64,000 bases of DNA from a virus (lineage: Duplodnaviria > Caudoviricetes). The position numbers and the translations under genes were made by a program. This document shows, piece after piece, positions 2,513-25,757 of the stretch (positions within the stretch are counted from its first letter, which is position 1; each line of letters begins with the position of its first letter). The stretch is taken from IMG/VR virus record IMGVR_UViG_3300028591_000096. One strand, 5' to 3'. The notes under the pieces are model-generated. The model searched no databases and had not been told where the DNA came from. It was given only the letters and a program-made list of their open reading frames with translations.

Positions 2513-2541
2513 AGGATGTAACTTTTGTTACATCCTTTTTT
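2513..2541 (+). terminator. Intrinsic terminator
   Basis: AGGATGTAAC-TTTT-GTTACATCCT stem followed by a T run. Confidence 0.85.
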
Positions 2542-2575
2542 AATCGTTTTTATATTGTAGTAGTATAATATTATA
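2539..2575 (+). promoter_or_regulatory. Class II bipartite promoter TTTAAT-N18-GTATAATANTATA
   Basis: Same motif and 18-nt spacing at five intergenic sites. Confidence 0.65.
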
Positions 2576-2599: not shown

Positions 2600-2788
2600 A
2601 TGTTTAATGATGATCAGAATGATGTTTTATACGCTGATATAGAAATTGATAGCAACGACTTCTTCGTTATCACACCAGAAGGAAATTATTTTAATTTCCC
2701 AGCAGATAAATTTAATGAAAATAGTGACGATTTTACGATAGTTGATACAAAATCACATAAACCATATACAGTAAAGTTTCACGATTAA
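2600..2788 (+). CDS. Small hypothetical protein
   Basis: 62-aa ORF between a class-II promoter and the glycosyltransferase genes. Confidence 0.6.
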   Translation: MFNDDQNDVLYADIEIDSNDFFVITPEGNYFNFPADKFNENSDDFTIVDTKSHKPYTVKFHD

Positions 2789-2803: not shown

Positions 2804-3658
2804 ATGAGTAAAATCACAAAGCTTGGATATGGAGTTATAGTATTCGATGATGTGTGTCATTTGAGAAATATGCTTACAGAGGTTCGTCCAAATTGTGACG
2901 AAATTGTAGTTTGTTTACAAAATGAATCATATTATGGAATACCTATTAACCCTAAAGTTATAGATCATGTGAAATCCCTTGTTGAAGGAAAACTTGTGGA
3001 TGATGTTATCTGGTTTAATCCAACAGATATGCATGAAGATGAAGGAAATCATTCACCAAGATTCGTAGAAACCGATAAGAGAAACTTTATCCTGGATTAT
3101 TTAGAAAAAGAGAAAGGATGTTCTCATAGTATTGTTATAGATAGTGATGAGTTTTATGATGGAGAGGATTTTGCAAGAGCTAAAGAAATTATAGACAGGA
3201 CAGACAAGATAAAGATATCTTATTGTCAGTATATTAACTATTATAGAGATTACATACATCTTATGGTTTGGCCTTTCCTGTGTTATGTGCCTTTTATAAC
3301 GGAAAGTCACTATAGGTTTAATTTTAAACATGGAAGTTTTGATAAACCATCTGATCCAACAAGAAGATACATGATAACACAACAGGGTGAATTTTACAGT
3401 ATACTTAGTTTCAGTATAGTTAAGATGCATCATTTATCTTGGATTAGACAAGATATAAGATCTAAGATTGACAACTGGTCATCAAGAAAGTATTTTGACA
3501 ATGCTGTAGGATTAAGAGACAGAATACTTGATAGATATGATAATTATCAGGAAGGACAGAATGCTGTTATTATGTTTAATACGCCGAATTATGAAGTTGT
3601 TGTAAATAAATTACCTAAACAATACATTAACCCAAAGTACAATTTAACAGAAATATAA
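2804..3658 (+). CDS. GT-A fold glycosyltransferase (GT2-like)
   Basis: N-terminal beta strand with DEIVVC, KRN, IDSDEF (DxD) and C-terminal MHHLSW motifs. Confidence 0.7.
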   Translation: MSKITKLGYGVIVFDDVCHLRNMLTEVRPNCDEIVVCLQNESYYGIPINPKVIDHVKSLVEGKLVDDVIWFNPTDMHEDEGNHSPRFVETDKRNFILDYLEKEKGCSHSIVIDSDEFYDGEDFARAKEIIDRTDKIKISYCQYINYYRDYIHLMVWPFLCYVPFITESHYRFNFKHGSFDKPSDPTRRYMITQQGEFYSILSFSIVKMHHLSWIRQDIRSKIDNWSSRKYFDNAVGLRDRILDRYDNYQEGQNAVIMFNTPNYEVVVNKLPKQYINPKYNLTEI

Positions 3659-3661
3659 AAT

Positions 3662-4627
3662 ATGAAAATTGCAATTATGGTGATGGCAGCTCATGCTGAA
3701 CCATCTACAAGAAATCTTGATGCTATACAGAATACACTTGTTAAGTATCAGAATGAGCATAAGGATAGATTTAAGAATGAATATGATTTTTATTTCTACT
3801 GGTCTGGAGGAGAAAATATGGATGATGAAGTGAAAATTTCGGATTCAACCAAATATTCTAATTTGAAATTTGTAGAAGTAAAAGAAGAGGAGAGCGTTTA
3901 TAGAACATTTGAAAAGTCAATTAAAGCTTTTGATTATATTCATAGGAATAATGAATACGATTGGTATGTTCGTATGAACATTTCAATGTGGCTTAATATT
4001 GATCTTCTTGATGCTGTTATATCTACATTCAAATCTAATAGTATGTATGGAAACGCATTGAACAGTTATGTGAATCTTAATTGTGCATATTGTGATGACT
4101 TATATGTTCGTGGTGATTTGATGATTTTTGACAAGAATGTGATGAATGGTATTCTTGATAATGCTATGAAATTCCTTTATAGTGATTGGAACATGAAACT
4201 TCGTGATGGGGTAGATCATGTTGATGATTGTCTTATAGGTTGTTGTTTCATCGATTATGTTGGTCCAGAATACTACAAATCGTTGTATATGCTGTCTTAT
4301 ACGTATTTGCCAGATTATGATGTTAGTGATGAGTTGAAGCCGCAAAAATACAATATAGGTACACGTGTAAAGACTGTTCCACCTACAGAAACATACTCTG
4401 GATATTCCTGGGATGATAATGAATGGAGAAAGAAGGATTGTGATAAGATGTTTAAACTTACTGAATATGTAGAGAAAAATCCATTCACATATATAGGACT
4501 TAAGATGAAAGATGTATTGGTTGATAAGAAAAATTCAAGACAGACGTTATTCATATCAGCAAGCGGACAAAATGTGTTTGACGTATTTCATAGATTTTTA
4601 GAGCAAAAAAGAAAGGTTGGAAAATAA
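3662..4627 (+). CDS. Glycosyltransferase, GT31/galactosyltransferase-like
   Basis: KIAIMVM...TFEKSIKAFDYI...YDWYVRMN...RGDLMIF...DDCLIG follows the GT31 motif order. Confidence 0.6.
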   Translation: MKIAIMVMAAHAEPSTRNLDAIQNTLVKYQNEHKDRFKNEYDFYFYWSGGENMDDEVKISDSTKYSNLKFVEVKEEESVYRTFEKSIKAFDYIHRNNEYDWYVRMNISMWLNIDLLDAVISTFKSNSMYGNALNSYVNLNCAYCDDLYVRGDLMIFDKNVMNGILDNAMKFLYSDWNMKLRDGVDHVDDCLIGCCFIDYVGPEYYKSLYMLSYTYLPDYDVSDELKPQKYNIGTRVKTVPPTETYSGYSWDDNEWRKKDCDKMFKLTEYVEKNPFTYIGLKMKDVLVDKKNSRQTLFISASGQNVFDVFHRFLEQKRKVGK

Positions 4628-4639
4628 TTCCAACCTTTT
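4612..4639. terminator. Bidirectional intrinsic terminator between convergent operons
   Basis: AAAGGTTGGAA-AATAA-TTCCAACCTTT inverted repeat. Confidence 0.8.
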
Positions 4640-4664
4640 ATCGTATCTTTGGTGAATGGGATAA

Positions 4665-6203
4665 TCAAAATCCTCCGAATAATCCTCCGAATTTTGGATA
4701 TTGACATACTGTAACTATCCATTGTGACATAGCTGAACTTCCAGCATTAGGTCCATATGATAACGTATTATCTGTAGTTGTATGTACAAAATATGCATAT
4801 CTTACAGATCTAGTTTTGTTTTCGCTTGTAGCTTTATATACTAATTTATGATTAACATTATCATATGCACAATTACACCAATTTCCTGAACCAGCATTTG
4901 TTTGAATTGTTATGTGTTCTACATAAATATTATCTTTAAATGTTCCACGACCATAAGCATACATTGAAATTATGTTGGTGTTTTGTCCAGAATGTTCAGT
5001 GCCAGCATATTTAGTAACAGGTGATGGATCATGTGTTATATCGTTAATATAACCTTCATTTATTTCGTTAGTTGGATTTGTTCCGTATATACTTGAATCA
5101 GCTTCAAGTACAGCTGTATTAAATGTAGACGACATGTCTCTCATGAATATTTTTTCTTTTGAGCCGTTTGTTCCGTCTACGTAAAGATACAGTAAGCATT
5201 TATAAGGATGCCCAGCATTGTACGCGTTCTTTAGAACATCTATTGGTATAAATGTTGTTGTTTTGTATGATTGTTCTCCTATACCATCCGAATAATCTTT
5301 TATTGTAACTTCAAAGTTATCTAACTTTTCATCATCAAAATTTTCAGAAACAACTTCTGGATTTTTTGGTAATGGTGATGCATGATTACATGTGTTACAT
5401 AATCTTGCCCACCATCCATTAATCCATGATATATCTGTTGTGTTTCCACAAATTGGACATTTTGAATATTCCTCTGTTGATCCTTTACATGAATAATTTG
5501 TTATATATCCTCTCAATGTACATTTTTCGCCTGTTGATGAATCATAATCATTTAATCCAGAATACAATTTTGGTGTTTGGAATTTTTTAGCTATTCTTGT
5601 ATCCATACCAGGTGATATCCAATCTGTTATAAATTCAATTTGTAGCTTATATTCACCTAATAGAAATGAGTTTAAAGATGTTACCAAAAATGTAAATCCA
5701 CAAACAGAGTTGACGTATAAAGAATTTGGATCTTTTTCTCCTATAAACCTAGCTTGATCTATATCTGACGTTTCTGATATTGCATATACGATACTGCTCT
5801 TAAATCCATGATATATTTGAGATATATTATTTACACATGTAACATTAAGTTCTATATTTGATATATCTGTTTCTTGTTCATGAGATTTTGATAACCGTGT
5901 GTCCCATATATTTGAAATGTTCACAATATATGCACCAGTTATTTTTTCTGTTATATACAGTAAATATGTGCTATTTGGTTCAGAATATACAATACAATCA
6001 CCAATATCTGGAGTGATTGAATTACCGTAAATATTTGATATTGTTACAGAACTATCATTTAATCTGAATGTTATAGGATCGGATATTGATTCTTCATTAT
6101 ATGTTCCATAAAATGTTACAGCGGCTCTTTTGCCAGAGTTACCAGTACCTCCTGGTATAAATGTAGATGTTGATCCACTTTTATTTATGATGTTTGCTGA
6201 CAT
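4665..6203 (-). CDS. Putative tail/baseplate-associated protein with short collagen-like N-terminus, Zn-ribbon insert and C-terminal BACON-like domain
   Basis: PGGTGNSGKR; CPICG...CNTC; C-terminal WC...ENKTRSVRYA...TVCQ (W/N/R/Q BACON pattern); last gene of a late operon. Confidence 0.55.
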   Translation of the reverse strand: MSANIINKSGSTSTFIPGGTGNSGKRAAVTFYGTYNEESISDPITFRLNDSSVTISNIYGNSITPDIGDCIVYSEPNSTYLLYITEKITGAYIVNISNIWDTRLSKSHEQETDISNIELNVTCVNNISQIYHGFKSSIVYAISETSDIDQARFIGEKDPNSLYVNSVCGFTFLVTSLNSFLLGEYKLQIEFITDWISPGMDTRIAKKFQTPKLYSGLNDYDSSTGEKCTLRGYITNYSCKGSTEEYSKCPICGNTTDISWINGWWARLCNTCNHASPLPKNPEVVSENFDDEKLDNFEVTIKDYSDGIGEQSYKTTTFIPIDVLKNAYNAGHPYKCLLYLYVDGTNGSKEKIFMRDMSSTFNTAVLEADSSIYGTNPTNEINEGYINDITHDPSPVTKYAGTEHSGQNTNIISMYAYGRGTFKDNIYVEHITIQTNAGSGNWCNCAYDNVNHKLVYKATSENKTRSVRYAYFVHTTTDNTLSYGPNAGSSAMSQWIVTVCQYPKFGGLFGGF

Positions 6204-6204
6204 A

Positions 6205-7074
6205 TTATGATATTGTTATTTTCTTTATATATTCTTTATTGTTAACGTGGAATGATATATATCCAGAGCACATACATTTACTGTCTGATGTTGTAATGTT
6301 AGATTTTAAATAAACAGAGGTTGATGCGTCTTTTTCTTCATCATATGATGATATTGTTGATATATCCCACATTGTGCTTGTGTCTCTATGTCCAAATGGA
6401 TACAAATATCTGTTGTCTATAAATATGCTATTATTATAATTTTCTGATGTTATAACCTTTTCTATTCTAAGACCACTTATAAAGTTAAGAACAAATTTAC
6501 ACATGTGATTATCCATCTTATCTAAATATTTTGTGAAATTAGAAGGTGTGTCTAAACGTATGCTGTTTCCATAACATGAGCTGTCATTTGTATCTCTATG
6601 ATGATATAAAGGTGACGCACCATTCTCTATATAATTATAATCGTTTATAGCAGGAACAGGGTTAGAATCTATTTTGTATTCTATATTGATTTTATTATTG
6701 TTTTCCTCAAATATATCTTCACCTTCACCATCATCAGAAATTATTTTTATATATCCTATTTTTTTAATCGTACAGTTTGAAATATCATCTGAAATACTAC
6801 TATTATCTGAATTAGCTATTCTTAACATCATAGCATCTATTGTTATTATAACATCTCCTATTTTATAATTGATTACCTGACCTACACCATATTTTGGATT
6901 TGTCGATAACACTTTCTTCTGTTTTATAAGAAGTATCATGTCTTTAATACTATCTTCCGATGAATCAAATGAAGAATAATGAACAGAATATCCATCTTTA
7001 CCAGATGAACCAATGCTGCCTTGTGGAGCGTATCCACATATACCGTTTTGAAATTTATATAAGTTGTTCGACAT
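6205..7074 (-). CDS. Putative virion protein, N-terminus paralogous to neighbours
   Basis: QGSIGSSGKDGYSVHY Gly-X-Y start; position in late operon. Confidence 0.5.
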   Translation of the reverse strand: MSNNLYKFQNGICGYAPQGSIGSSGKDGYSVHYSSFDSSEDSIKDMILLIKQKKVLSTNPKYGVGQVINYKIGDVIITIDAMMLRIANSDNSSISDDISNCTIKKIGYIKIISDDGEGEDIFEENNNKINIEYKIDSNPVPAINDYNYIENGASPLYHHRDTNDSSCYGNSIRLDTPSNFTKYLDKMDNHMCKFVLNFISGLRIEKVITSENYNNSIFIDNRYLYPFGHRDTSTMWDISTISSYDEEKDASTSVYLKSNITTSDSKCMCSGYISFHVNNKEYIKKITIS

Positions 7075-7087
7075 TTTTTAATTCTTT

Positions 7088-8650
7088 TTATAATATTTGA
7101 TTCAACGATAATATTTTTGATTTTGTTCTACCAGTTCTTGTATCAACACATACAAGTTCAAATACATTATTTTCATTGAATATGAATTTATTCATTTCAT
7201 CACAAACATAATTTTTAACAACGTTTATTCTATTGTTGCAGAAAGTTTCAGATGAATCACCATATTCATCATTCAAGTTTAATTTTTTATTTAATGATCT
7301 TTGTGCCGCAACGTACTGATCAAACACAATAGGTGATAATGATGATATGCTCTTTGTATATGACCCTACTGTTTCGTTAAAGCAATAAGACGGAAAATAA
7401 TCATTTGATATCATACTTGAAAAATATGCAGATTCCCCGCTTCTATAATGAACTTCACAATATCCACATGATGAATTTACGTTTGGGTTTTTTGAATATT
7501 GTATTATTGATGAACTTGGGTTACCAATACTTGTGTAACTATAACAATGATTAGATACTGATATTATGTCATAAAGAATTGTATCGTTAGAATTAATGCT
7601 TGTTATATTTTTTCCAATACAATAATAACCAATGAACCTACTAACGAGATTTACAATGTATCTGAACATAAAAAGATGGAAAGGGTAACCCATACTATCT
7701 TTTACAGATGTTATATAACCGTTATTTCTATAAGGATCAAAAAATGATGAACTATAATTATTAATAGATGGGTGAAGTTTATCACATGCCATATCTGATA
7801 TGTAATATGATCTTTTTTCGTCTATCACTTCATCTTCATTTCCTTTACGCAATAATTTTGATACTGGAATTTCAATTACTTTTTCGAATAGAACATTATT
7901 AATATTGTTATTATCGGTAAAAGGTTCTTCATTTATGTTTGTTGCGTATGAATCAGAAAAGCCTTTCATTATAGGAAGATTGTTGCGACCTAATATGGTT
8001 TTTCTGTTTTTTATATGAATCTTCAGGTAAAAGTCATAATTTTGAATAATACTTTGATCGGTTAGTGATATTTTTGGTCCAATCTCAAAACCAAACAATA
8101 ATCTTAATGCTTCACTATAATATGAAATACATCCAGATGCATCCTTTACTTGAAGACCGTTAACATATGATAAATTATCTGCTCTAGAATATTCATATGA
8201 CCTATTTACGGGCACATGGCACTCAGTTGTAGTATATTCACCCCTGTTTAATTTAACGCTATGTATACAATCAAAAACATTGACTACATTTGTTTCGGAT
8301 TCTATATATCCCAATCTTTCAATATCGTATGGGTTTGATGTATTGTCTGTTTTTATTATTTTGTATATGTAATTGTATACACTTTCAGATATTTCACATA
8401 TAATCAAATCATTATTATGATATATTCTTGTATCACCAGATCCATTAAGATCTGTGGACTCATTTATTCGAGTCAACAATGTAGACTTTAAATCATCAGA
8501 TATCGTGCTGTAATTTATAAAGTACACTGTTGATCCGCTTAAACCGTCTTTACCTTCAACCCCACGTTCACCACATACAGACAGACCTGCTGGTTGTATA
8601 TCCTGGAACATTTTTGTTTGTTTGTATTCAAAATTAAAAGATTCTATCAT
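7088..8650 (-). CDS. Putative virion protein, N-terminus paralogous to neighbours
   Basis: GERGVEGKDGLSGSTVYF Gly-X-Y start; position in late operon. Confidence 0.5.
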   Translation of the reverse strand: MIESFNFEYKQTKMFQDIQPAGLSVCGERGVEGKDGLSGSTVYFINYSTISDDLKSTLLTRINESTDLNGSGDTRIYHNNDLIICEISESVYNYIYKIIKTDNTSNPYDIERLGYIESETNVVNVFDCIHSVKLNRGEYTTTECHVPVNRSYEYSRADNLSYVNGLQVKDASGCISYYSEALRLLFGFEIGPKISLTDQSIIQNYDFYLKIHIKNRKTILGRNNLPIMKGFSDSYATNINEEPFTDNNNINNVLFEKVIEIPVSKLLRKGNEDEVIDEKRSYYISDMACDKLHPSINNYSSSFFDPYRNNGYITSVKDSMGYPFHLFMFRYIVNLVSRFIGYYCIGKNITSINSNDTILYDIISVSNHCYSYTSIGNPSSSIIQYSKNPNVNSSCGYCEVHYRSGESAYFSSMISNDYFPSYCFNETVGSYTKSISSLSPIVFDQYVAAQRSLNKKLNLNDEYGDSSETFCNNRINVVKNYVCDEMNKFIFNENNVFELVCVDTRTGRTKSKILSLNQIL

Positions 8651-8652
8651 TA

Positions 8653-11600
8653 TTAAAACATAATTATCATTTCTGCATAGTATCTGTGAGGTTCAAGATT
8701 CTCAATATTCATGTAATATCTGTTTTCAGAGAATACAATAGTATTTTCAAGATTCTTCATTTCTTCATATGATGATGTGTCTGATGGCTTTTCATATTTG
8801 AACTCAAGTTTATCGCTTGACTTATCTACATATAATATAAACTTTGTGTTATTATTTATGTCTATAAGTTTAAGTATTGTGTTTTCTATATACTTTGACT
8901 TATAACTTGAATATGAAATATCTTTACTGTTTATGTATTTTTGATTTTTGCCCCATGAATCTGAATAACCATTACTCTTGTCACTATTTATGAAATTTAT
9001 AATGGATGATGTTATGTTGAGTACAATTTTTTTGTCACTTGGTGATTCTACAGTGTCAACCCATGTTGTTAGATCTATTCCGTGTATAATATTACCATTT
9101 TGATCTTTTGTTTTTAAGTTGATACCTCTAGATGCAATATAGTTGTTTTTTTCAAATCCTGAGAATGCTCCATAATATGAAATATATGTATCATATTTAC
9201 TGAATAATCTACACATATTTGTATACCAATATCCGATAAGTGGATCATGGTTTCTTAATAGTGTTACAGAATGTGATTGATTTATACTTTTTATCTCTTT
9301 AGTACTTGATTTGTCAATTGCGTTTTCAAACTTTATACGTGTAACAAGATCATCTACATTGGTTGTATTTTCAAGTATTCCATCAGTACTGTGTAAACGA
9401 CTATCAACATCTTCAGAATATAATAATATCGATGCATCTTGACATTTTTTCGTAGTCTCTATATTTGATACATTAAAATATATAAGCCTAGATAAACCAT
9501 TTTCTTCATATACTGGATTATCATTTTGATCAAATTTAATTGCATCAGAAGAAGAATCTTCTCGTGATTGAACAAAATACAAATATTTTAAATCTCCTAC
9601 ACTTATATCACCTACACTTACATCAAATGTTCTTAAATGTAGTTTTGTTCTTCCTTCAATTTTTTCTGTTCCGTCAAAATAAAATTCATATATGGTTGAA
9701 CTATCATTTTTACCATAAAGTAAACTATCAAATTGAAGTGTATCAATTATAGAGGAGTCATCAACAAAACCAGAAAGTGTCTTCGTATCAAAGCTGTATA
9801 TTCCCTTAATAACATTATCATTATCCACATTATCATTATTTGTTATAATTTTGCCAGAATATTTTCCTTCATTTTTTTCTAATTTCATATCTATAAAATC
9901 ATTAGGAAATTCAAGTGAATGATACTTATCTGCTATCCATTTTTTATATAGATCGTTTGGTTTTATAACCATATCATCAACGTAACATACATCTATTATT
10001 GAATCGTATGTATTTACTATAACATCTTTTATATAAAAGCCAAAATCATACAAACCGTTATCGATTTTTTCTTTATAAATATCTCCATTTATTTTTGGTG
10101 GAATAAACCAAGTACTAGCATCTGAAACACTAGCATCTGGAACCATTCTGATTTCATATGAAATATCTTTTTTTATTATCATTGTTGATGCGTCCTTATC
10201 GGAAATTTTCATTATGTTGTCTATATCTATTACTTTTTTCATCCATGTTTGATTTATATAATCTACATCATTTAATATTATATTACAACCATTAAACCAT
10301 GTTAAGAACGAGTCAGATATTTCTACTGGAGCTGCATATTCAAATTTAAACACATCTTTCATTACAGGTACAGAATATGATGGATGTGTGTATCCAGATG
10401 TGATTACTTCATATTTCGTATTCTCTCGTTCTATTTTAAACGGATCAACAAGATCTATACTTATTATACTTGCAACATTATTATATTTTTTTGTTTCGTT
10501 TTCATTTTTTATCGTTATTGCATAATATGATTTTAATTTTTTTAATTGTGATAATGATAACGAATTTGTTGCTATGTTAATACATGTAGATGAATCTATT
10601 TCAGACAGATTTATATACGCATCAACATTATTGTTACCTATGTCTAATGTTTTTATAATCTGATTACTATTAATTGTTTCTATTTTATCATCTTTTGCTA
10701 AAAAAAGATTAGAACTATCTAATCGAATATATCTTTCGTTTATATCTTCATCGAAATGTATCTCTTTTACATTTCCATATATAACAATTTGATTTGGTGA
10801 CGTACTTTCTGCTTTTTCACCGTTTGTTGTTGGTTTTGATATAAGAAATATATCTGATTTTTCATCTACAACTTTATCAATTCCTTCTATTTTTGTAAGA
10901 TATCCATCATCTTTTATTTTTAATCCACCACCGTCATATACACAATCTGATAACTTGATAGAATGTTTAATTCTATGTATTCCAGATGTGATTGTTTCTG
11001 GTCTTTGTATTTTGTTATTATCACTACTTAATCCGTTATATATAATAAGAGCAGCTTGCTCCTTTGTTTCATCTATGAATAGTTCATATGTTCCAGGCTG
11101 ATTTGCGTTGTTTCCGCTCATAGAAAGCAATATTACAGAATATCCAACATATTTTGATAGATTTATCTTTGATTTATCTGTTGATTTTATTCTTGCTTTT
11201 ATTCCACATGAAACAAATTCTATCGAATTATCTCCATATTTGTATATCTTTGAAAACTTGTTAAGATGATTTTCATTTCTATATAATAAATCTTCTATAG
11301 ATCCATTTTCTTCGCTATTGTAAATATAAGAGTTGAACCCACCTGTTTCATCTTCATCATAATAGTTGTAAATGTATTTTGTGTACTTCATATTGTTATC
11401 ATCTTCTCCTAGATTACATGAAACAAACCCTATATGAGTATTATCGTCACTTGGTATCCAGTATGAGCTACTGTCGACTAAAAATGGATTTTTACTATAG
11501 CTTTTTGATATTATTACTGTTGTTTTAAAATATGGAAGATACACCGAATAAGTTATTCTTATATAATTTGATATTTTTACAAGATCGGTATCAATAGCAC

Positions 11601-14600
11601 TTTTTCCATATCTTAACTCTATAGGAATAGTATTTATATCTGTATAATATGCTATTATATCAACTGGTACATTTGAGTTTATAATAATATCTTTATTTTC
11701 AGATATATCTATAAATGGAGATGTTTTAAAAGAATTATCTGGATTAATTATAGATCCAGAATAAGTTAAATATCCATATTCACAATCTGGATCATCTGGT
11801 GTATAAACTTTATATTGATTTTCTGCGAAGTTATACATTACTCTCATTCTATTTCCAGTTTCATCTGTTCCAAGTATTCTCCATTTACAGCAATATGGTG
11901 ATATTAGAGATATATCGAATTTATTGTGACCGTTTATTTGCATGTTTTCAAGAAATACAGCTAGATCTTCTATATTATTAAGATCCATATAGCCAAATCC
12001 ACTTGTGTTGATGTTATATGTTTTAAATTTATCACAATAATCTGCTATAAATTCTTCAGAATTCTGTATAATTTGTTTATTATATACATTTGTTTCAGTT
12101 TGAGTATACTCTCCTAAATTTCCTCCTACTTTTGTTCCTTCTTCTTGGTTGTTTTCATTATTAAGAAAGAAAACACTATCTTTATCAAGAACATCTAAAT
12201 AATAATCTTTTAATGGAAATATAGAGCAAATTCCAGAATTCATAGGGAAATTCTGATAAAATTGAAGTTTACCGTTTGCTTTTATTAATGGATTAAATTC
12301 AAATTTAATAATATATGATTCTTGGTATCCAAATCCTACAATACTATACATAGGATCTGTGTGTTTATGTACAATGAAATTACCATCTATAGAAATATAA
12401 TTTATCTCTATATTTTTTCTATATAGTTTGTTTTCATTGAATTTTGTTGTGTACAAAACAGTTTTGTATGGTGATATACTTTTTTGTATATCATCATTAA
12501 TAAGGACCATAGTTTCACCATTTTCATTATAAACTATATCCATAAAATTAACACAATATGCAACTCTTGTTCCTAGACTTTCAAATCCTATAGGATAATA
12601 TACTTTTATGTCCGTATTATCAAAACTATTCGATTTTGGATCAATGATCATTTTCTTTATAGAATCACAACCGAATATATATGAAGATTTGTCGATATAT
12701 TCATTATCTGGATTTGTATTTTTTATTATATCATCATTTTCCTTATTGAATCCACATATAGATGATATTTTCTCAAACATTACAGTTTGTTGACCAGTTG
12801 AGTTTTTCTTGTATAATAATGAGAATGACGATTTACCATCATCGTATGCACTTATATTGTTACTAAGCTTATTAAAAGCTTTTGTTATAAGACTTAGTTG
12901 CTTCTTTATTATTTCTGGTTTATCTTTCTCGTCAATGTTTGAACGATATTCTGTGTTTAATATAGATATTCTTATAATCTGGAATTCTTTTCCATTTATA
13001 TCGTACTGTGTATATGATATATCAGAAAGTTCATCATCATCAAAGAAATTAGAAACAATCACTTCATATATGGTGTTGTTTGTTAGATCCAAGATTCTAT
13101 AATGTTCACCTGGATCTAATACATCATTTAGCTTGTTTGAAGCATACACCCATAATCCATTATTATAACTGCTTATATCGTATGTGTCAACGGTAACTAT
13201 ACTTTTGTATGTTTCTAATTTGTGTGATTTTGCTTCTTCGCTTTTACTAATATTCTCTTTTAATCTTTTGAATTCTTTGTCTGTTGAAATCCCATAAATT
13301 ACAGTAGGATAGTATGATGGATCAAAATCTAATCCATGAATCGAACTATCAAATATAGCTGCTTCATCTGAATTTATATCTATGCATGTAAATGTTTCAT
13401 CTTCTCCATTAAGTCTTACATATACACCAAAATATGTAGGTAAAGAGAATAATCTTTCGCTTGTGTCATCAAACATAAACTCAAAGTTTATTATATCTTT
13501 ACTTACAATATGATTTCTCTGAAATCCAAGTGTATACCAATCATTCATAGACACTTGGTTGTTTATGCTTCTTTCTTGTGTTGTTTCTTCGTAAATATTA
13601 GATACAACACCATGCTCTAAAGATATACCATTAAATATATTGAAGTGATCGTAATCAGATCCTGTATAAACATCACCAACAAAATCTTTATTATTTTCTA
13701 ATATTCTTCGTATGTATGAACCAAGTTTTGTTCCTTGTCTGAAATCAAATGATTTTATAAGTTCACATTTATTACAGTCTATAAATTCTGTTCTGTCGGC
13801 TATTTCTATATTATTGTTATTAAATAAAGATTCATAATCATTTATTTTAAAAATAAGGAAGAAATCTGGAAGTACTTTTCTTATACACAATGGCGCAAGA
13901 AGTGAATAGTTTTCACTATACATTTTATCTGTATTTGTTCTTACACCATAGTTATATTTGTCATAATATTGCTCATCAAAATCATTAGCTGTAGCAAAAA
14001 GATCATAACATGAATCTTCAATTTTATAAAAATCATCAGTTGTTATAGATCTCATTTTAGACATAAGTGTTCTTCCATAATATTCTGATGGATTAATAGG
14101 AATATGTCTGTATTTATTCTGAGATAAACCTAATGACACTTTAAATGTATCAAGATACATGTTTGATTCTGAATCAACAACAACTTTAACATTACCTGTA
14201 AGTTTAGGATTTACACGAAGTATTGAATATGATGTATCATCATCGATCATCATATCCAATCTTTTATATTTCATTTTTTTGTATAGACTTGAATCTTCTG
14301 AATCAATAGGTGAATATTCATATTTTGTAGGTTCATCTTCAGATCCTTCTATCTTTGTCGAAAGTATTGAACCAGACTTAGATGAGAAATATATAACATA
14401 GTATCCATTAATTGGTTTTATCGTTTTTATGCTTTTTTTGTTCTTTATTATATCGTTTATTAAAACACTAGCATAAATAGAACTATCTCCGTTTGATATT
14501 ATATAACCAGAAAGATCTGGTGAATATATACTACCATCATCTGAATGTTCACCGTAAAGTATGCGTTCCTCGTTATCCAATATTACATATTTCCACTCTG

Positions 14601-14778
14601 GATTATCTATAGTATAAATTGTCTGAATATAATCCGCATAATGATGATCATCATTCGGACTTACAAGAATGGCAGAGTTTATATAAATATCTCCATCACC
14701 TTCCTCATATGTGAATTCTCTATTTTCTCCAGGATTATCTTGGAAATGTAATATTAAAGTCTTTTTTGTGATAACCAT
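8653..14778 (-). CDS. Very large (2041 aa) putative baseplate/tail structural protein
   Basis: Long ORF in a late minus-strand operon; shares a ~60-aa module with 34712-39793; 13 D-[S/A]-S motifs. Confidence 0.6.
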   Translation of the reverse strand: MVITKKTLILHFQDNPGENREFTYEEGDGDIYINSAILVSPNDDHHYADYIQTIYTIDNPEWKYVILDNEERILYGEHSDDGSIYSPDLSGYIISNGDSSIYASVLINDIIKNKKSIKTIKPINGYYVIYFSSKSGSILSTKIEGSEDEPTKYEYSPIDSEDSSLYKKMKYKRLDMMIDDDTSYSILRVNPKLTGNVKVVVDSESNMYLDTFKVSLGLSQNKYRHIPINPSEYYGRTLMSKMRSITTDDFYKIEDSCYDLFATANDFDEQYYDKYNYGVRTNTDKMYSENYSLLAPLCIRKVLPDFFLIFKINDYESLFNNNNIEIADRTEFIDCNKCELIKSFDFRQGTKLGSYIRRILENNKDFVGDVYTGSDYDHFNIFNGISLEHGVVSNIYEETTQERSINNQVSMNDWYTLGFQRNHIVSKDIINFEFMFDDTSERLFSLPTYFGVYVRLNGEDETFTCIDINSDEAAIFDSSIHGLDFDPSYYPTVIYGISTDKEFKRLKENISKSEEAKSHKLETYKSIVTVDTYDISSYNNGLWVYASNKLNDVLDPGEHYRILDLTNNTIYEVIVSNFFDDDELSDISYTQYDINGKEFQIIRISILNTEYRSNIDEKDKPEIIKKQLSLITKAFNKLSNNISAYDDGKSSFSLLYKKNSTGQQTVMFEKISSICGFNKENDDIIKNTNPDNEYIDKSSYIFGCDSIKKMIIDPKSNSFDNTDIKVYYPIGFESLGTRVAYCVNFMDIVYNENGETMVLINDDIQKSISPYKTVLYTTKFNENKLYRKNIEINYISIDGNFIVHKHTDPMYSIVGFGYQESYIIKFEFNPLIKANGKLQFYQNFPMNSGICSIFPLKDYYLDVLDKDSVFFLNNENNQEEGTKVGGNLGEYTQTETNVYNKQIIQNSEEFIADYCDKFKTYNINTSGFGYMDLNNIEDLAVFLENMQINGHNKFDISLISPYCCKWRILGTDETGNRMRVMYNFAENQYKVYTPDDPDCEYGYLTYSGSIINPDNSFKTSPFIDISENKDIIINSNVPVDIIAYYTDINTIPIELRYGKSAIDTDLVKISNYIRITYSVYLPYFKTTVIISKSYSKNPFLVDSSSYWIPSDDNTHIGFVSCNLGEDDNNMKYTKYIYNYYDEDETGGFNSYIYNSEENGSIEDLLYRNENHLNKFSKIYKYGDNSIEFVSCGIKARIKSTDKSKINLSKYVGYSVILLSMSGNNANQPGTYELFIDETKEQAALIIYNGLSSDNNKIQRPETITSGIHRIKHSIKLSDCVYDGGGLKIKDDGYLTKIEGIDKVVDEKSDIFLISKPTTNGEKAESTSPNQIVIYGNVKEIHFDEDINERYIRLDSSNLFLAKDDKIETINSNQIIKTLDIGNNNVDAYINLSEIDSSTCINIATNSLSLSQLKKLKSYYAITIKNENETKKYNNVASIISIDLVDPFKIERENTKYEVITSGYTHPSYSVPVMKDVFKFEYAAPVEISDSFLTWFNGCNIILNDVDYINQTWMKKVIDIDNIMKISDKDASTMIIKKDISYEIRMVPDASVSDASTWFIPPKINGDIYKEKIDNGLYDFGFYIKDVIVNTYDSIIDVCYVDDMVIKPNDLYKKWIADKYHSLEFPNDFIDMKLEKNEGKYSGKIITNNDNVDNDNVIKGIYSFDTKTLSGFVDDSSIIDTLQFDSLLYGKNDSSTIYEFYFDGTEKIEGRTKLHLRTFDVSVGDISVGDLKYLYFVQSREDSSSDAIKFDQNDNPVYEENGLSRLIYFNVSNIETTKKCQDASILLYSEDVDSRLHSTDGILENTTNVDDLVTRIKFENAIDKSSTKEIKSINQSHSVTLLRNHDPLIGYWYTNMCRLFSKYDTYISYYGAFSGFEKNNYIASRGINLKTKDQNGNIIHGIDLTTWVDTVESPSDKKIVLNITSSIINFINSDKSNGYSDSWGKNQKYINSKDISYSSYKSKYIENTILKLIDINNNTKFILYVDKSSDKLEFKYEKPSDTSSYEEMKNLENTIVFSENRYYMNIENLEPHRYYAEMIIMF

Positions 14779-14794
14779 AATTTTCTGTTTTTTA

Positions 14795-17116
14795 TTATTG
14801 GAATGAATTTAAAATTCTTGAGAAGAATGGGTAGATTTGTTGATTTGCGTAGTTGCTTATAGTTTCGTCTACTGTTCTTCTTCCTTCCTTCGTTAAATTC
14901 GGAGCTTTAATAACAAGTTTTCCTCCATATGTTGTATCATCTTTTTGTAAGTTGAATTCAACACTAGGAGATACATTATCTCCTCGGCCACTGATGGATC
15001 TTAACTTGTCGGCTAGCGACATTGTTATGATATTTGTATTTCCAGAAGCATCAATATCCGTCTCTGTATATTCGATATTATCTGCGCTGTGTTTATACTG
15101 AGAATTACTGTCGGATATATGTGTATAAAGTCCAGCCGCTGACAGTGTTTCCTGTAAAACTACAGATGTCATATCACTCTTTACATTATCAAGTATAGTT
15201 GTTACTGAGTCATTTGTACTCAAATTATCTGGGAATGATACGATTACAGAGTTACTCCATTCCGATTTAAGTGGTGAGTAAGGGTATCCAGCTTCAGATA
15301 TAGATCTAACTTTCAATTCAACTTTTTCACCAGATCTTATAGGAATATCAACTTGGTTTATTGTAACATGTGTTCCGTCTAGTGTTTCAGATTTCCATTC
15401 GAATGTATCGGTGTCCTCATTATATTGTTTATCGAGTATTGGTGATGATGCTATAGACCAGTCTGTGAAAACACCACTTTCTGTTGTAGCATTTGATGAG
15501 TCCGTATAATCGAATGTGTTCAGTTTAGCACCAGTTTCATCAACGTGCAGATATCTGTACATTGTCTCAAATCCGATAATACTTTGCTTTCCTATTTTTT
15601 GATCCTCTATTGAGTATTGTGGATCAGGAATAGCAAAGAATCCTCTGACGTGATATTTTGGTGTATAATTAATAGCACCAGCATCATTAAGCAACGTATT
15701 AAGTTCATCTACAAGTGAACTGAACTGAGTAGTAAGGTTATTGAGTTTTTCTGTGTCTGAATTTATAGAGTTTGTTATTATATCACGTCTATTAGCATCA
15801 TACTCGGTTATAAGTTTATTCTTGTTTGATGAAATTGTATTACGTGTCGCTGTTATATTAGATTTAACGGATGCTATTTCTGAAGTGATAGATGTGTATC
15901 TTTCGCTATCGAGAGTTGCATTAAGTTGTGTATTAATTTGTACAACACGTAAATCACCTTCATTTAATATAGGAGCAGAAGGAATCTTTCCTCCGTATGC
16001 TGGTATTCTTCCTTCTTTAACCTGAGCTATCCACATTCTACCAAAGTCGGCCACGTTCTTCACATAATATGTAAAGAGATTCATATCTGAATCCTTACTG
16101 TATATCAGTGTATTTGTTTCAAATACTACTGGATTTGACCATTCTCTTGAAAGAAGATTAAATTTTTCATTTACGCCTTTGATGTAGACAATGTTTATTT
16201 CATCTATTCCTATACCTACGCTTACAACCTTTTCTTTGAATGGATCATTATAGAATTCAAGGACATCATATAATCCAATTGTATCGTAACCTACATTGTA
16301 TTCCAATTTAACTCTCATCTCTTGTTGATTAATTTCCTTAATCTTGAAAAGAGAGTTATTAAATCTTAAATAATCGTCAACTTGTAGAACATGTCCAGCT
16401 TCATCGCTTTTACCATTATCATCAACTGTAGCGTAGTTAATGGTTGACAAATAGTACCATGTTGCATTTAAACCAGTTTCTTGATTTTTTATAAGATTTA
16501 TACCAGTAACCTGGAACTCACCATTAAACTTTTCGTATGTTAATGGTAATTTTATCTCATCTTTATCTTCTTTGTAAGTTATATAATTATCCTCAAGGAA
16601 TTTTATCATCTCTCCGTAAGGTAGAGTTGTATTCAAAATATCAGATTTAACACTGTCATTTAATCTTTCCTGATTTGTATCAATAATGATCCTAGTGACA
16701 TAGACTCTATCTGAATCTTCTTCTATTTTTCCAGCTAAATCAATTTTAACGTTGCATCTTGGGTATTGTAGACTCTCAAAGAACCAGTTAGGATCTATAT
16801 CAAACTGACTAACACTACCTAAATTTTCTATAGTGTTGGCTGGTCTTGATATTGTTTCGACATTTATTTTTCTATATGTTCCGTCACCAGTCTCTATAAC
16901 ACCTTTTCCAGCAGTAAATCTGGAAATTGTTCTTTCTGCTCTTTCAACCCTATTTACTATATTCTGATATGAAGGTAGAACAACATCATCTGTAACAACA
17001 ACTTCAGCGTTATTGCCAGTAATAGTTTCGTTCATGGCCTGAGCTACATCAAGCATATCACTTGCTGCCTTTGTTAATTGAGCCATGTTTTCGGAATAAC
17101 TGTTTGTATTAGCCAT
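14795..17116 (-). CDS. Putative structural protein with central coiled coil
   Basis: 773 aa; heptad-like segment (EIASVKSNITATRNTISSNK...); late motif at 17146-17153 (-). Confidence 0.55.
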   Translation of the reverse strand: MANTNSYSENMAQLTKAASDMLDVAQAMNETITGNNAEVVVTDDVVLPSYQNIVNRVERAERTISRFTAGKGVIETGDGTYRKINVETISRPANTIENLGSVSQFDIDPNWFFESLQYPRCNVKIDLAGKIEEDSDRVYVTRIIIDTNQERLNDSVKSDILNTTLPYGEMIKFLEDNYITYKEDKDEIKLPLTYEKFNGEFQVTGINLIKNQETGLNATWYYLSTINYATVDDNGKSDEAGHVLQVDDYLRFNNSLFKIKEINQQEMRVKLEYNVGYDTIGLYDVLEFYNDPFKEKVVSVGIGIDEINIVYIKGVNEKFNLLSREWSNPVVFETNTLIYSKDSDMNLFTYYVKNVADFGRMWIAQVKEGRIPAYGGKIPSAPILNEGDLRVVQINTQLNATLDSERYTSITSEIASVKSNITATRNTISSNKNKLITEYDANRRDIITNSINSDTEKLNNLTTQFSSLVDELNTLLNDAGAINYTPKYHVRGFFAIPDPQYSIEDQKIGKQSIIGFETMYRYLHVDETGAKLNTFDYTDSSNATTESGVFTDWSIASSPILDKQYNEDTDTFEWKSETLDGTHVTINQVDIPIRSGEKVELKVRSISEAGYPYSPLKSEWSNSVIVSFPDNLSTNDSVTTILDNVKSDMTSVVLQETLSAAGLYTHISDSNSQYKHSADNIEYTETDIDASGNTNIITMSLADKLRSISGRGDNVSPSVEFNLQKDDTTYGGKLVIKAPNLTKEGRRTVDETISNYANQQIYPFFSRILNSFQ

Positions 17117-17145
17117 CTTCTGTATAGATGTTTTTATCTTTTCAC

Positions 17146-17153
17146 TATTTATC
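17146..17153 (-). promoter_or_regulatory. Class III late promoter GATAAATA
   Basis: AGATAAATAGTGAAA is identical at 244, 17146 and 19809 (-); analogous to T4 late TATAAATA. Confidence 0.75.
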
Positions 17154-17191
17154 TGAAAAGAACGATTATGTACATTTTTTAAATGAAATAA

Positions 17192-17223
17192 AAATGATCG
17201 ACCCTTTATAAAGATCGATCATC
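17192..17223 (-). terminator. Probable intrinsic terminator
   Basis: ATGATCGA...TCGATCAT inverted repeat followed by a T run on the minus strand. Confidence 0.65.
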
Positions 17224-17322
17224 ATATATTATGGATATTTTGTTATACTATATTGTTTGTGTTTTTGAACGAGAAACTTGATCATAATAGTTTGCTATGG
17301 TTTCAGGTTTTATAGATGTTGT

Positions 17323-19179
17323 CTATGTTATACCAGATGTCCTCGAAACAAGTAAAGCTATAATAGATATTACATCAATATAATTATTTTCGTTTATACT
17401 TGTTTTCATTGTGTTTGCTATTTTTAATGGAACTCCAGATAAACCAGATTCGTCTATTTCCATATTAACTTTTCCTGTAGTGTAATTATATGAAACTCGT
17501 ATGCAATTCAACACCATTTTTGCTGTTGATGGCGTAACATCATATGAATATGTTCCTTCTTTTTTGTATATTTCTGATGCGGTGTATGGGAAATTTCCGT
17601 TTTTTATATTAGATATATCTGATTCTATTCCGTCTATTTTCTCCATAGTTGTAGAAACGAGCTGCTTGATGTCTTTACTGTCTTTAGACATAGAGTAAAG
17701 TGTTTTAGCATTCTCTTTCATTGTTGTTACGGCTGCTGTCAAATTTCTCAAAACATCATTAAAGTCTTCAGACATACTGTATCCAGCGGTAGAGTTATCA
17801 TTAACTGTAATATCTCCACTATATGCAGTAGAAGGTTTAACGTTTATTCGGAATGAGTATGATGAACCATTTTTGTTTGCACCAGATTTAGCCTTTAATA
17901 TTGATGGAAAATAGAACATTCCATCAATTTCTGATGATTCGATAGCACCATCAAGGATATAAAGACCATATGCATTAGTTGCTAGTCTTTTCGTCTTGTG
18001 AGCATCATATATTGAATAATATACCAATATAGCATTAAATCTGAAATCGTCATACATTTCTTGTTCGATCTCTTGATTTGATGTGTTGCCCATTCCTATA
18101 TCATCATAAGTTAATGAACTGTTTTCATAGTATGTTCTAAGTTTGTTTATATCAAATTCAACTTCAAACTTATCATAATCTTTGTTTTCACTTACTGTAT
18201 ATGTTGCATATGATGAATATTCAGAATCAGACTTCGAAATAGGGGATATACCAGTTGATTTTATAACATCATGAGAATTGTAATTAAAACTTTGATATGA
18301 TTGATTTTCATCATTTATTGTTAAATATCCTACCGATGGTAATTCTTCTGGTTCACCTATCCATTTTGCTGTTATTTTATAGTCAACTTTTTCTGTTTCA
18401 ATTACTTTAAATTGGCGTTCAGTTGATGTTTCTGTTATAATAGTACCGTATGACGGATATATAAAATCGTTACTAGTCATATGAAAATTAACAACATTAT
18501 CTGATTCTATCTGTGTTATTTCTGATTCATCTATATTTTCAATCCATCTGTTCACATTTGTTCCTTCATATGATGTTTCAATGTAGTTTTCATCTATTAC
18601 TTTTTTGAAAAGAACACGCATCTGTCCATATGATGATGGAATTTGTACAAACGTTTCATTATATAATCCGCTATCATCTGTTCTTTGTGAACCAGCCGAT
18701 ATTGCACCAAATGCTTTAGCTATAGCCTTTTCCTTTTTTTCATATATATAATTACCGTCTGTAACGAATCTGTCATCATCATTCTTCATTCTACCAAAAA
18801 GCCATTTCCAGAATGATCTTTCTGATACTGTTTTATTTGATGCATAATTGTAATTGTCCTGGTTTCTTAATACGGTTTCAAAGTTTAGGCAATAATTTTG
18901 GAATTGATCTGCAAAAATAAAGTCACCTTGTGTGCTTGAATCAATAGTATACTCAGATGAACTATAATCCATCTCACTTGTTAGATTCAAGAAAGTCTTG
19001 TCCGTATCTAGATCATTTGCAAAATTGGGTATATCTAACAGAACATAATGGGAAATTTCAACACTGTTATGACTTTCATTTATATTTAGACCAATATCTT
19101 CCATAGCAGAGCCGAATGTATAAAATGTTCCACCCTGTTTTCTTGGCATTATAATTGGTGTTCTAAGTTTCTTTGACAT
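17323..19179 (-). CDS. Putative structural protein
   Basis: 618-aa ORF in a late operon with C-terminal coiled coil. Confidence 0.55.
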   Translation of the reverse strand: MSKKLRTPIIMPRKQGGTFYTFGSAMEDIGLNINESHNSVEISHYVLLDIPNFANDLDTDKTFLNLTSEMDYSSSEYTIDSSTQGDFIFADQFQNYCLNFETVLRNQDNYNYASNKTVSERSFWKWLFGRMKNDDDRFVTDGNYIYEKKEKAIAKAFGAISAGSQRTDDSGLYNETFVQIPSSYGQMRVLFKKVIDENYIETSYEGTNVNRWIENIDESEITQIESDNVVNFHMTSNDFIYPSYGTIITETSTERQFKVIETEKVDYKITAKWIGEPEELPSVGYLTINDENQSYQSFNYNSHDVIKSTGISPISKSDSEYSSYATYTVSENKDYDKFEVEFDINKLRTYYENSSLTYDDIGMGNTSNQEIEQEMYDDFRFNAILVYYSIYDAHKTKRLATNAYGLYILDGAIESSEIDGMFYFPSILKAKSGANKNGSSYSFRINVKPSTAYSGDITVNDNSTAGYSMSEDFNDVLRNLTAAVTTMKENAKTLYSMSKDSKDIKQLVSTTMEKIDGIESDISNIKNGNFPYTASEIYKKEGTYSYDVTPSTAKMVLNCIRVSYNYTTGKVNMEIDESGLSGVPLKIANTMKTSINENNYIDVISIIALLVSRTSGIT

Positions 19180-20493: not shown

Positions 20494-21456
20494 ATGGCAA
20501 AGAAAACATCAACAAAATCTACAGGTGGATCGATATTTGATATTGTGAAAAGTTTTGATGAATCGGCAGAGATTCTTGGTAAAAGTAAGACAGCAGTTAT
20601 CAGTGACTATATTGATACTGGTAGCTATATTCTTAATGCTTGCATATCTGGTTCACTTTTAAAGGGCGTTCCTGCTGGAAGATGTACTGTTTTGGCTGGA
20701 GATCCTGGAACTGGAAAAACGTTCCTCGCTATAAGTGTATGTAGAAATGCTCAAAAGAAAGGATATACACCGATATATTTGGATTCTGAATCTGCTATAG
20801 ATCTTGAATTTGTTAAACGTCTTGGATGTGATCCAGATAATTTTATCATAAAACAGGTTACAACAGTTTCAGAAGTATCGACTTTTATTGCTCGTACATG
20901 CAAATCTGTGTTAGATCTTCCAGAAAACGAAAGACCTAAACTTATTTTTGTTCTTGATTCTCTTGGAAACTTAACATCAGATAAAGAGTTAAATGATACA
21001 ATAGATGGAAATGACAAGAGAGATATGACAAGAGCACAAGCGGTAAAGGCTTTATTTAGAACTAATGCAACAGCATTAGGAAAAATACAAGCACCTTTTA
21101 TTGTAAATGCACATATTTATAAAACACAGGATCTTTTTGCAAAAACAATTGTCTCTGGTGGATGTTTGGTTCCAGAAGAAAAGATCATAACAAAAAATGG
21201 AATAAAATCTATAGAAAATATAGTTGTTGGTGATCAAGTTTTAACGGTTGATGGAACATTTAAGGATGTTGTGAAAACGTTTATTTATGAAAAACCAACA
21301 ATCAAATTTACATTCGAAGGAGGAAAAACAATAGAGTGTAGCGAAGATCATAAATTTTTGGTTGGAGAAGATCCAACAGTTGAAGAAAACTGGAAAGTAG
21401 CAAAAGATTTAAATGAAAATGATTTCGTTTATGAAATTGTTTCTGATGGTATTTAA
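20494..21456 (+). CDS. uvsX: UvsX/RecA recombinase N-terminal half (223 aa) fused to split-intein N-fragment (97 aa)
   Basis: IDTGSYILN, GDPGTGKT Walker A, LDSE, VLDSLGNL, RAQ; then ...SGG|CLVPEE (intein block A) and IECSEDHKFLV (block B). Confidence 0.9.
   Translation: MAKKTSTKSTGGSIFDIVKSFDESAEILGKSKTAVISDYIDTGSYILNACISGSLLKGVPAGRCTVLAGDPGTGKTFLAISVCRNAQKKGYTPIYLDSESAIDLEFVKRLGCDPDNFIIKQVTTVSEVSTFIARTCKSVLDLPENERPKLIFVLDSLGNLTSDKELNDTIDGNDKRDMTRAQAVKALFRTNATALGKIQAPFIVNAHIYKTQDLFAKTIVSGGCLVPEEKIITKNGIKSIENIVVGDQVLTVDGTFKDVVKTFIYEKPTIKFTFEGGKTIECSEDHKFLVGEDPTVEENWKVAKDLNENDFVYEIVSDGI
21163..21453 (+). mobile_element. Split intein N-fragment (IntN)
   Basis: Starts at Cys1 (TGT 21163); KSIENIVVGDQVLT and CSEDH motifs; acidic C-terminal tail; no endonuclease domain. 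Confidence 0.9.
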
Positions 21457-21535
21457 AAATTATTTTTACCTCCAGAATTAGTGATAGTTTTTTAAGGATA
21501 AAAAATTTTTGAAAACAGAAAAATTAATAAGATAA

Positions 21536-25721: not shown

Positions 25722-25757
25722 AAAAAGGTTGGATTTTATGTCCAACCTTTATTTTTT
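25722..25757. terminator. Bidirectional intrinsic terminator
   Basis: AAAGGTTGGA-TTTTATG-TCCAACCTTT between convergent genes. Confidence 0.8.

Follow-up and report, generated by a model that had tools for sequence, protein, structure and literature searches.

A four-residue peptide motif, Asp-[Ser/Ala]-Ser followed by Thr, Ile or Val (D-[SA]-S-[TIV] in one-letter code), recurs far beyond expectation in the tail proteins encoded by a 64,000-nucleotide stretch of phage DNA (IMG/VR record IMGVR_UViG_3300028591_000096; this stretch, at its full length, is referred to below as the window), in which the tail operon adjoins two putative glycosyltransferase (GT) genes, P0001 and P0002. The motif is real, clade-wide and specific for Asp and Ser: a short linear motif on tail proteins, of which D-[SA]-S-[TIV] would be the local form and D-x-S-hydrophobic the general one, its bearers lying putatively at the virion surface. 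That it is recognised by a trans-acting factor of one kind or another we consider probable. The best single explanation is that it is a candidate sequon for O-glycosylation by the neighbouring phage GT, a proposal put forward tentatively and set against its competitors below.

The initial annotation had counted 34 occurrences of D[SA]S by hand in eight putative structural proteins; translation and recounting reproduce the total and each of the per-protein counts exactly. The eight proteins, with lengths in amino acids (aa) and expected numbers of sites, are:

4665..6203, minus strand: 512-aa tail-operon protein; 3 D[SA]S, 0.43 expected; homologues in close relatives only
6205..7074, minus strand: 289-aa tail-operon protein; 3 D[SA]S, 0.50 expected
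7088..8650, minus strand: 520-aa tail-operon protein; 2 D[SA]S, 0.48 expected
8653..14778, minus strand: 2041-aa giant tail or fibre protein; 13 D[SA]S, 2.1 expected (p<5e-4 by whole-protein shuffles)
14795..17116, minus strand: 773-aa conserved baseplate-module protein (phrog_29329); 2 D[SA]S, 0.67 expected; late-type promoter motif at 17145
17323..19179, minus strand: 618-aa tail-operon protein; 1 D[SA]S, 0.80 expected, not enriched
34712..39793, minus strand: 1693-aa giant protein; 7 D[SA]S, 1.36 expected (p=0.001); late-type promoter motif at 40071
50055..52550, plus strand: tail sheath; 3 D[SA]S, 0.61 expected; Pfam Phage_sheath_1C at residues 726-823

The three sites of the sheath (residues 163, 365 and 396) all lie outside its conserved C-terminal domain, and the 2041-aa protein combines a conserved N-terminal anchor (residues about 186-500) with variable distal parts. 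The 1693-aa protein has no Pfam or PHROG match. A further late-type promoter motif, at 19808, lies upstream of the tail operon.

A motif that was first chosen by eye, and counted in a set of proteins defined in part by bearing it, invites the suspicion of chance, skewed composition or post-hoc picking. That suspicion is effectively refuted. Correction for composition, set beforehand as a check, leaves the excess in place with whole-protein and with local shuffles alike: shuffling within windows of 20, 40 or 100 aa gives 7.2-7.8 expected occurrences for the eight-protein set and at most 19 in 1000 shuffles, against the 34 observed. An unbiased scan of all tripeptides puts DSS first (24 versus 5.3 expected, p=2.5e-9) and DAS second (10 versus 1.65, p=9e-6), the dipeptides DS and SS show no enrichment in the motif-rich proteins, and the excess is replicated at hundreds of sites in independent loci. 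The remark that Ile, Thr or Val often comes next is borne out: D[SA]S[TIV] occurs 23 times where 1.49 are expected (about 15-fold; p about 1e-19). The fourth-position preference is genuine, and the motif in its effective form reads D-[SA]-S-[TIV]. Among the other 38 open reading frames (ORFs) of the window, D[SA]S is found twice (in 25756-26484 and 32456-33208) against 6.8 expected (p=0.03), a deficit that partly reflects a general shortage of the DS dipeptide in non-tail proteins.

Look-alikes fare differently in the motif-rich proteins. D[SA]T is absent (0 versus 4.9 expected), and E[SA]S (2 versus 5.3), N[SA]S (4 versus 7.8) and the reversed motif (4 versus 7.0) are not enriched; D[ST][AILVMT], the canonical glycosylation sequon of Bacteroidota hosts, is under-represented in the eight proteins (19 versus 30.6). 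Asn and Thr would be acceptable in a generic Asx/ST-turn, and the strictness for Asp and Ser counts in favour of a recognised tag. Selection is at the peptide level, as had been surmised from the variety of codons: 36 sites are written as 26 distinct 9-mers in codons of typical usage, and the coding frame yields 34 matches where the five other frames yield 0, 2, 0, 8 and 1. A signal in the DNA itself was rejected on these grounds, and so were internal repeats and local composition as the source of the motif in the window's proteins, on the evidence of unrelated contexts, local shuffles and lack of periodicity.

The claim that two GT-A glycosyltransferases lie side by side next to the tail operon is borne out by predicted folds; neither protein matches a sequence family. 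The two genes are:

2804..3658, plus strand: P0001, GT2-like GT-A glycosyltransferase by fold, candidate initiating enzyme
3662..4627, plus strand: P0002, GT31-like GT-A glycosyltransferase by fold, candidate extending enzyme

P0001 is modelled by AlphaFold2 (AF2) as a single Rossmann-like alpha/beta/alpha GT-A domain with a predicted local distance difference test score (pLDDT) of 88.8. Foldseek relates the model to SunS/ThuS, ColGalT1, SpsA and GalNAc-T (E down to 7e-6), with 56 PDB structure matches at E<=0.001, those listed being without exception of GT-A or nucleotidyl-transferase fold; VIA Z scores are 13.4 for ThuS, 12.9 for GalS1 and 12.8 for SunS, and 11-12 for many GT2 enzymes. The likeness to GTs that act on peptides is only a lead, since the margin in Z over polysaccharide GT2 enzymes is about 1-2. 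A DxD motif (D113-S114-D115-E116) is invariant in 20 homologues, and each of the eight lineages compared retains it as DSDE or DADE. No Pfam family (Glycos_transf_2, PF00535, included), NCBIfam, PHROG or PDB entry matches P0001 by sequence, even by profile, although an Atlas lead has PF00535 in 13% of one neighbouring cluster. The P0002 model (AF2 pLDDT 86.2) finds B3GalT5 (E=2.2e-9; template modelling score 0.57), C1GalT1, B3GNT2 and B3GalT6 in Foldseek searches, and its Atlas neighbours carry PF01762 or PF02434. GT31 enzymes such as B3GalT5, C1GalT1 and B3GNT2 elongate sugars that are already in place. Invariant residues in P0002 comprise H186-V-D188-D189-C190 and D146/D152, whose possible match to the DDD motif of GT31 was judged by eye only; there is no sequence match to Pfam (Galactosyl_T, PF01762, and Fringe, PF02434, included), PHROG, NCBIfam or PDB, even by profile, and none of 20 homologues checked singly against Pfam has a match at E<=1. 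The window's subclade encodes the two in neighbouring but distinct genes; Lak-type relatives and some others have P0001-like and P0002-like domains fused in one ORF of 614-683 aa with no stop at the junction (in L013, L017, L021, L023 and L026, for example, with the GT at about 10001 of each; L numbers designate related loci). Their fusion in relatives argues that P0001 and P0002 are functionally linked.

About 150 related loci were compared overall. Eighty of these, from IMG/VR, were gathered through an alignment of the baseplate protein, a single-sequence scan with that protein having returned no matches, and 43 of their records were searched for the GT. Motif and P0001 family keep company at clade level. 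The tail module of GT-bearing Lak-A1 holds about 16 D[SA]S against 5.3 expected, a 1798-aa protein of L003 holds 13 against 2.4, and proteins of L002 hold 3 each against about 0.6; the motif is flat in four annotated relatives that lack the P0001 family in the whole record. Pooled GT-bearing records have 205 sites versus 64.6 expected (3.2-fold), while records at least 40% complete and without the GT have 58 versus 53.2 (1.09-fold), among them a 97%-complete genome of 425 kb at 0.7-fold; the difference is significant by the Mann-Whitney test (p=4e-4, kinship ignored). The suggestion that D-x-S is the more general form holds up: in a second GT-bearing subclade the unbiased scan puts DVS on top (28 versus 2.3, p=6e-21), joined by DAS, DPS and DGS. 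For the generalised motif D[SAVGP]S[ILVT], the ratios of observed to expected occurrences in pooled tail modules are:

Window subclade (A): 5.4
L083 (B): 7.8
Subclade C: 9.1 (416 versus 45.7)
L117 (F): 5.8
Lak type (D): 2.5
L086/L092/L094 (E): 1.7
GT-lacking clade (G): 1.26

D-x-S-hydrophobic is thus enriched 5-9-fold in four P0001-bearing subclades, weakly so in Lak, and stands at baseline (1.1-1.3-fold) in the GT-less sister clade; D.T, E.S and N.S are at about 1.0 in every group. When subclade C is collapsed to 62 protein clusters the excess persists (256 versus 29.1), with 33 of the 62 clusters individually significant. Sheath orthologues give an ambiguous picture, with 40 sites versus 9.5 expected in the presence of the GT and 10 versus 5.8 in its absence; many of these sites are inherited in shared columns, and there are exceptions in both directions (no site in Lak-A1, four in GT-less PTm1).

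GT-lacking relatives have tripeptide preferences of their own. The tail modules of L118, L136, L143, L146, L150 and L007 show excesses unrelated to the motif: TWD (9 versus 0.44), ATG/GAT (up to 17 versus 2.3) and GIG/NTG (21-23 versus about 4).

Is the motif a tag read by another molecule, or is it part of the fold that carries it? One can picture D-x-S-hydrophobic as the beta-arc or rung favoured in the beta-solenoids and fibres that this clade's tail proteins form, with its small and hydrophobic residues turned inward and Asp and Ser capping the turn, and with the GTs having nothing to do with it. We consider this unlikely, if far from negligible. Most sites stand alone: in the window clade 105 of 121 are isolated, with flanks at background and no periodicity at +/-5, and the window's own proteins have no Pentapeptide match at E<=0.01. 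All that the 504 sites of subclade C have in common is the consensus [T]-hydrophobic-D-x-S-hydrophobic-[N/G], and 177 sites have no other within 40 residues. The motif turns up in many non-homologous proteins (eight in the window, in addition to the 33 clusters of subclade C), is absent as an excess from the equivalent tail proteins of the sister clade, and insists on Asp and Ser to a degree that is unusual for turns. It also comes and goes on the same fold. Six orthologues of the 2041-aa protein have about 50 sites between them and only about five shared columns, even in well-aligned blocks (one stretch reads FDSSIHG in the window's protein and FDTNVHG, FDTEIHG or FNYPVTG in others), and sites are 4.6 times as dense in lineage-specific segments as in conserved ones (1.53 versus 0.33 per 100 aa). 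L083 and L086 have baseplate proteins that are 65% identical, followed by proteins that are 41% identical, and the 19 sites of L083 line up with non-motif residues in L086. Replacement of sites by other residues in orthologues argues that the fold does not require the motif, and a lineage-specific, context-free motif that turns over in many proteins points to a trans-acting factor.

Several observations pull the other way and must be set against the glycosylation proposal. Distant relatives have proteins of 550-775 aa near the GT with 9-12 D[SA]S each, many of them in tandem with a 5- or 10-residue period:

L037: 6746-9073, minus strand, tandem-array protein
L039: 12376-14520, minus strand, tandem-array protein
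L049: 6732-8480, minus strand, tandem-array protein
L060: 8812-10923, minus strand, tandem-array protein
L067: 11757-13421, minus strand, tandem-array protein

To judge from their sequences these look like solenoid fibres with D-S-S-I on the rungs, and sub-threshold Pfam matches to Pentapeptide_4 (PF13599) fall exactly on the arrays (best E=5.3e-8; 33 bits, below the cut-off of 38). The small and hydrophobic positions of the motif match the inward-facing positions of a solenoid: pentapeptide-repeat proteins likewise combine a small amino acid at i-2 with a hydrophobic one at i, and share the 5-residue periodicity of the distant relatives, but the places taken by Asp and Ser are D/N or variable in classical repeats. 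In subclade C the motif has hydrophobic neighbours at -1 and +3, and a number of sheath sites keep their alignment columns within a subclade. Clade-specific enriched tripeptides are common in tail modules, and the unrelated ones of the GT-lacking relatives probably arise from structural repeats. The distribution of the motif is not everywhere what a GT would predict, either: L086 has intact homologues of P0001 and P0002 and the motif at 0.2-1.0-fold, although its sister L083, with the same type of GT, is at about 8-fold; L092 reaches only 1.4-fold for the three-residue form and 2.8-fold for the generalised four-residue form; Lak types are weak; and the clade-level co-distribution of GT and motif may be essentially one evolutionary event. 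The expectation that motif and GT would track each other among relatives is accordingly upheld in part, for P0001-bearing subclades and the GT-less clade, and fails for L086 and for P0002: as far as this sample goes, the motif needs the P0001 family, whose presence alone does not suffice.

The glycosylation proposal can be spelled out as follows. Repeated gain of the motif would reflect recognition by a phage-encoded trans-acting factor, of which the likeliest is the cytoplasmic GT2-like P0001 (2804-3658); this enzyme would O-glycosylate the Ser of the motif using a host nucleotide sugar, and in the window's subclade the GT31-like P0002 (3662-4627) would add a second sugar. We infer that the GT has a protein substrate in the first place, that its acceptor is Ser, that the two enzymes serve as initiator and extender and that the sites are exposed; the benefit might lie in shielding from proteases or immunity, or in adhesion in the gut. 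In its widest form the proposal is that Lak-related huge phages of the gut and their environmental relatives run a cytoplasmic sequon-directed O-glycosylation system of their own, with an undescribed GT2-like family acting on the Ser of D-x-S-hydrophobic, a fused or adjacent GT31-like extender in some lineages, sequons gained and lost on exposed fibre segments in the manner of the glycan shields of animal viruses, and a middle residue that has drifted (S/A here, V/A/P/G elsewhere). So comprehensive a version is possible, and is to be taken with somewhat more reserve than its core.

Other factors might read the same tag. Ser could be modified in some other way, or the motif could dock a decoration protein, a chaperone or a fibre by strand addition, with the GTs serving DNA modification or the remodelling of host-surface glycans. 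Context-free, multi-protein, clade-specific behaviour with turnover fits such a factor equally well, the comparison of L083 with L086 shows that the GT does not suffice, and the fold neighbours of P0001 are tied between peptide and polysaccharide GTs, which makes a DNA or glycan substrate equally compatible with its fold. Regulation offers no help to the glycosylation proposal: joint control of the GTs and the tail genes by a late promoter was rejected, since the GT unit lacks the late motif and its promoter is of another class. No candidate for a different factor has been identified, however; Pfam shows no kinase or acyltransferase family among the window's ORFs, and the GT is the only conserved enzyme that is consistently found beside motif-rich genes in all subclades. 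A different factor is on balance rather improbable. Far less probable still is that the Bacteroidota host's general O-glycosylation system uses the sites. P. intermedia glycosylates D(S/T)(A/I/L/M/T/V/S/C/G/F/N/E/Q/D/P) (PMC10897501), and relatives of the window's phage are Prevotella phages. The initial annotation had held that DAS does not fit the host sequon, and this is right; DSS is accommodated by the broadened Prevotella form D(S/T)X. DVS, DPS and DGS of the relatives fall outside it as well, and the shortage of the canonical form and the absence of D[SA]T in the eight proteins also count against the host system. Phage virions and their tail proteins are assembled in the cytoplasm. The compartments also differ, the host glycoproteins of P. 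intermedia being predominantly extracytoplasmic (with a glycan of 1531 Da; PMC10897501).

Two further candidate predictors of the motif were rejected. P0002 does no better than P0001: its family was not detected among the subclade C records searched, and it is present in motif-free L086. Covariation of GT residue 148 (in the loop N-Y-Y-R/K-D) with motif strength seemed promising in eight lineages and was refuted by L083: the NYYNAYDR loop is identical in L083 (8.2-fold) and L086 (0.2-fold). The comparison of GT loci for this covariation is confounded by gene content.

How does the proposed system compare with known ones? The cytoplasmic heptosyltransferases TibC and AAH decorate many Ser residues along the beta-helical autotransporters TibA and AIDA-I; the folds, families and sugar of these enzymes are different, they have no defined D-x-S sequon, and their substrates are bacterial adhesins rather than tails, but they provide a precedent for the coincidence of rung motif and glycosylation site. 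To our knowledge, glycosylation of phage virions is established only for mycobacteriophages. There, phage GTs are reported to glycosylate the virion, with the glycans at the C-termini of capsid and tail-tube subunits (Freeman et al. 2023, as cited in PMC12619734). Common to both cases are phage GT genes beside structural genes, a virion-protein target (proposed, in the present case) and a possible role as glycan shield. The differences are that the mycobacteriophage glycans have been seen by mass spectrometry, whereas the case made here is one of sequence and predicted fold, and that the present candidate sites are a defined tetrapeptide at scattered internal positions of tail, baseplate and fibre proteins, with GTs of other families and a Bacteroidota host.

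The general O-glycosylation sequon of Bacteroidota is D-(S/T)-(A/I/L/V/M/T) (PMC8550257), and is broader in Prevotella (PMC10897501). It shares with the phage motif an obligatory Asp, a hydroxyl acceptor and a following hydrophobic or beta-branched residue, in the same host phylum. It differs in that Asp directly precedes the acceptor, with no residue interposed, and in admitting Thr, while the phage motif is confined to Ser in the window and in all subclades. The host system is also periplasmic and transfers its glycan en bloc, whereas the phage has its proteins made in the cytoplasm and soluble GT-A transferases as candidate enzymes. Structural counterparts of these candidates include SunS/ThuS (PDB 7msp, 7msk), among the best matches of P0001, and GT31 enzymes C1GalT1 and B3GalT5 (PDB 7q4i, 8zwp), the best matches of P0002, at sequence identities of only 11-16%; a peptide-initiating GT followed by a sugar-extending one would by analogy make a coherent two-step pathway. 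Literature on such a motif, or on glycosylation in Lak phages, was not found.

If the sequon proves true, it would be the first defined acceptor sequence for virion glycosylation by phage-encoded enzymes, and the first evidence of megaphages in human and animal guts sugar-coating their host-recognition apparatus, with a bearing on persistence in mucus, on resistance to gut proteases and antibodies, and on host range. Even if the motif is structural, a 5-9-fold, Asp/Ser-specific tetrapeptide excess that extends over dozens of non-homologous tail proteins and is switched on or off from one sister lineage to another constitutes a rule of tail-protein evolution that calls for explanation. In either event the motif is a useful marker for annotating outer virion proteins of uncultured huge phages.

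The GT pair belongs to a transcription unit of its own, whose upstream elements are:

2513..2541, plus strand: intrinsic terminator after the DUF5856 gene, read directly as a G+C-rich inverted repeat (GGATGTAAC/GTTACATCC) and then a T run
2540..2569, plus strand: promoter-like TTAATC-N18-TATAAT, of a class that is neither late nor host-type
2600..2788, plus strand: small ORF of 62 aa, first gene of the unit, without a Pfam match; a 58-aa gene has the same place in L002

The terminator divides the helicase unit from the GT unit. TTAATC-N18-TATAAT has three matches in the window (at 2540, 19883 and 58874) versus 0.37 by chance. Two other promoter-like classes can be told apart: the late motif AGATAAATAR (10 matches versus 1.5 by chance) stands before the tail operon and before structural genes that include portal and sheath, and the host-type TTGTATATTTGCAA (7 versus 0.12) precedes the gene of a major facilitator superfamily (MFS) transporter, ligase-side, Dam-side and other early-looking genes; neither is found upstream of the GT unit. 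T4-type TATAAATA occurs in the window at chance level only. Relatives with 78% and 59% GT identity retain the order helicase, DUF5856, GT, GT and then, on the opposite strand, tail genes, and the pair adjoins the tail operon in the window, L002 and L003. More widely, the GT lies beside structural genes in every subclade: in distant relatives it follows the sheath and tube genes, and in distant phages no more than one to three short genes separate it from the protein in which the motif is densest.

The phage of the window is related to the Lak megaphages of Prevotella, with a sheath 42-43% identical to those of Lak-A/B/C and a 773-aa baseplate-module protein 36-37% identical to theirs. More remotely related are huge uncultured phages (LR7565xx), phages of Tenacibaculum, Flavobacterium and Chryseobacterium, and Sphingomonas phage PAU. 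The window has a G+C content of about 30% and uses the standard genetic code (stop codons TAA 38, TGA 4, TAG 4), whereas the tail genes of Lak-A1 have 7-26 in-frame TAG codons each. The genetic code varies, in fact, among close relatives (the window, Lak-A1, L083, L086 and L160). L083 and L086 have in-frame TGA codons, two to four of these within the GT homologue; their G+C contents are 25% and 48.6%, respectively, and yet their baseplate proteins retain the identity cited above.

Pfam agrees with the gene identities that had been proposed (UvsW, ligase, DinG-like helicase, PolB, UvsX, Dam, ThyX, GuaC, portal and sheath): it recognises a UvsW-like helicase, RecA/UvsX with intein remnants, a T4-type portal, an NAD-ligase and a DinG-like helicase, as well as a sigma factor, GuaC/IMPDH, Dam, ThyX, PolB and the sheath. 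The RecA/UvsX gene (20494-22219) has matches to Hint and intein-splicing domains at its C-terminal end, with the next ORF following after a short gap; the sequence of this region is consistent with a split or intein-interrupted recombinase. Directly downstream of the interrupted recA region is a gene with a TnsA-like endonuclease domain (22667-23239; Pfam E=6e-18), whose product may, by its sequence, be a homing or mobile-element nuclease. The MFS transporter is full-length and phage-encoded (26880-28055; Pfam MFS_1, E=3e-22), with a host-type promoter motif in front of it at 26814.

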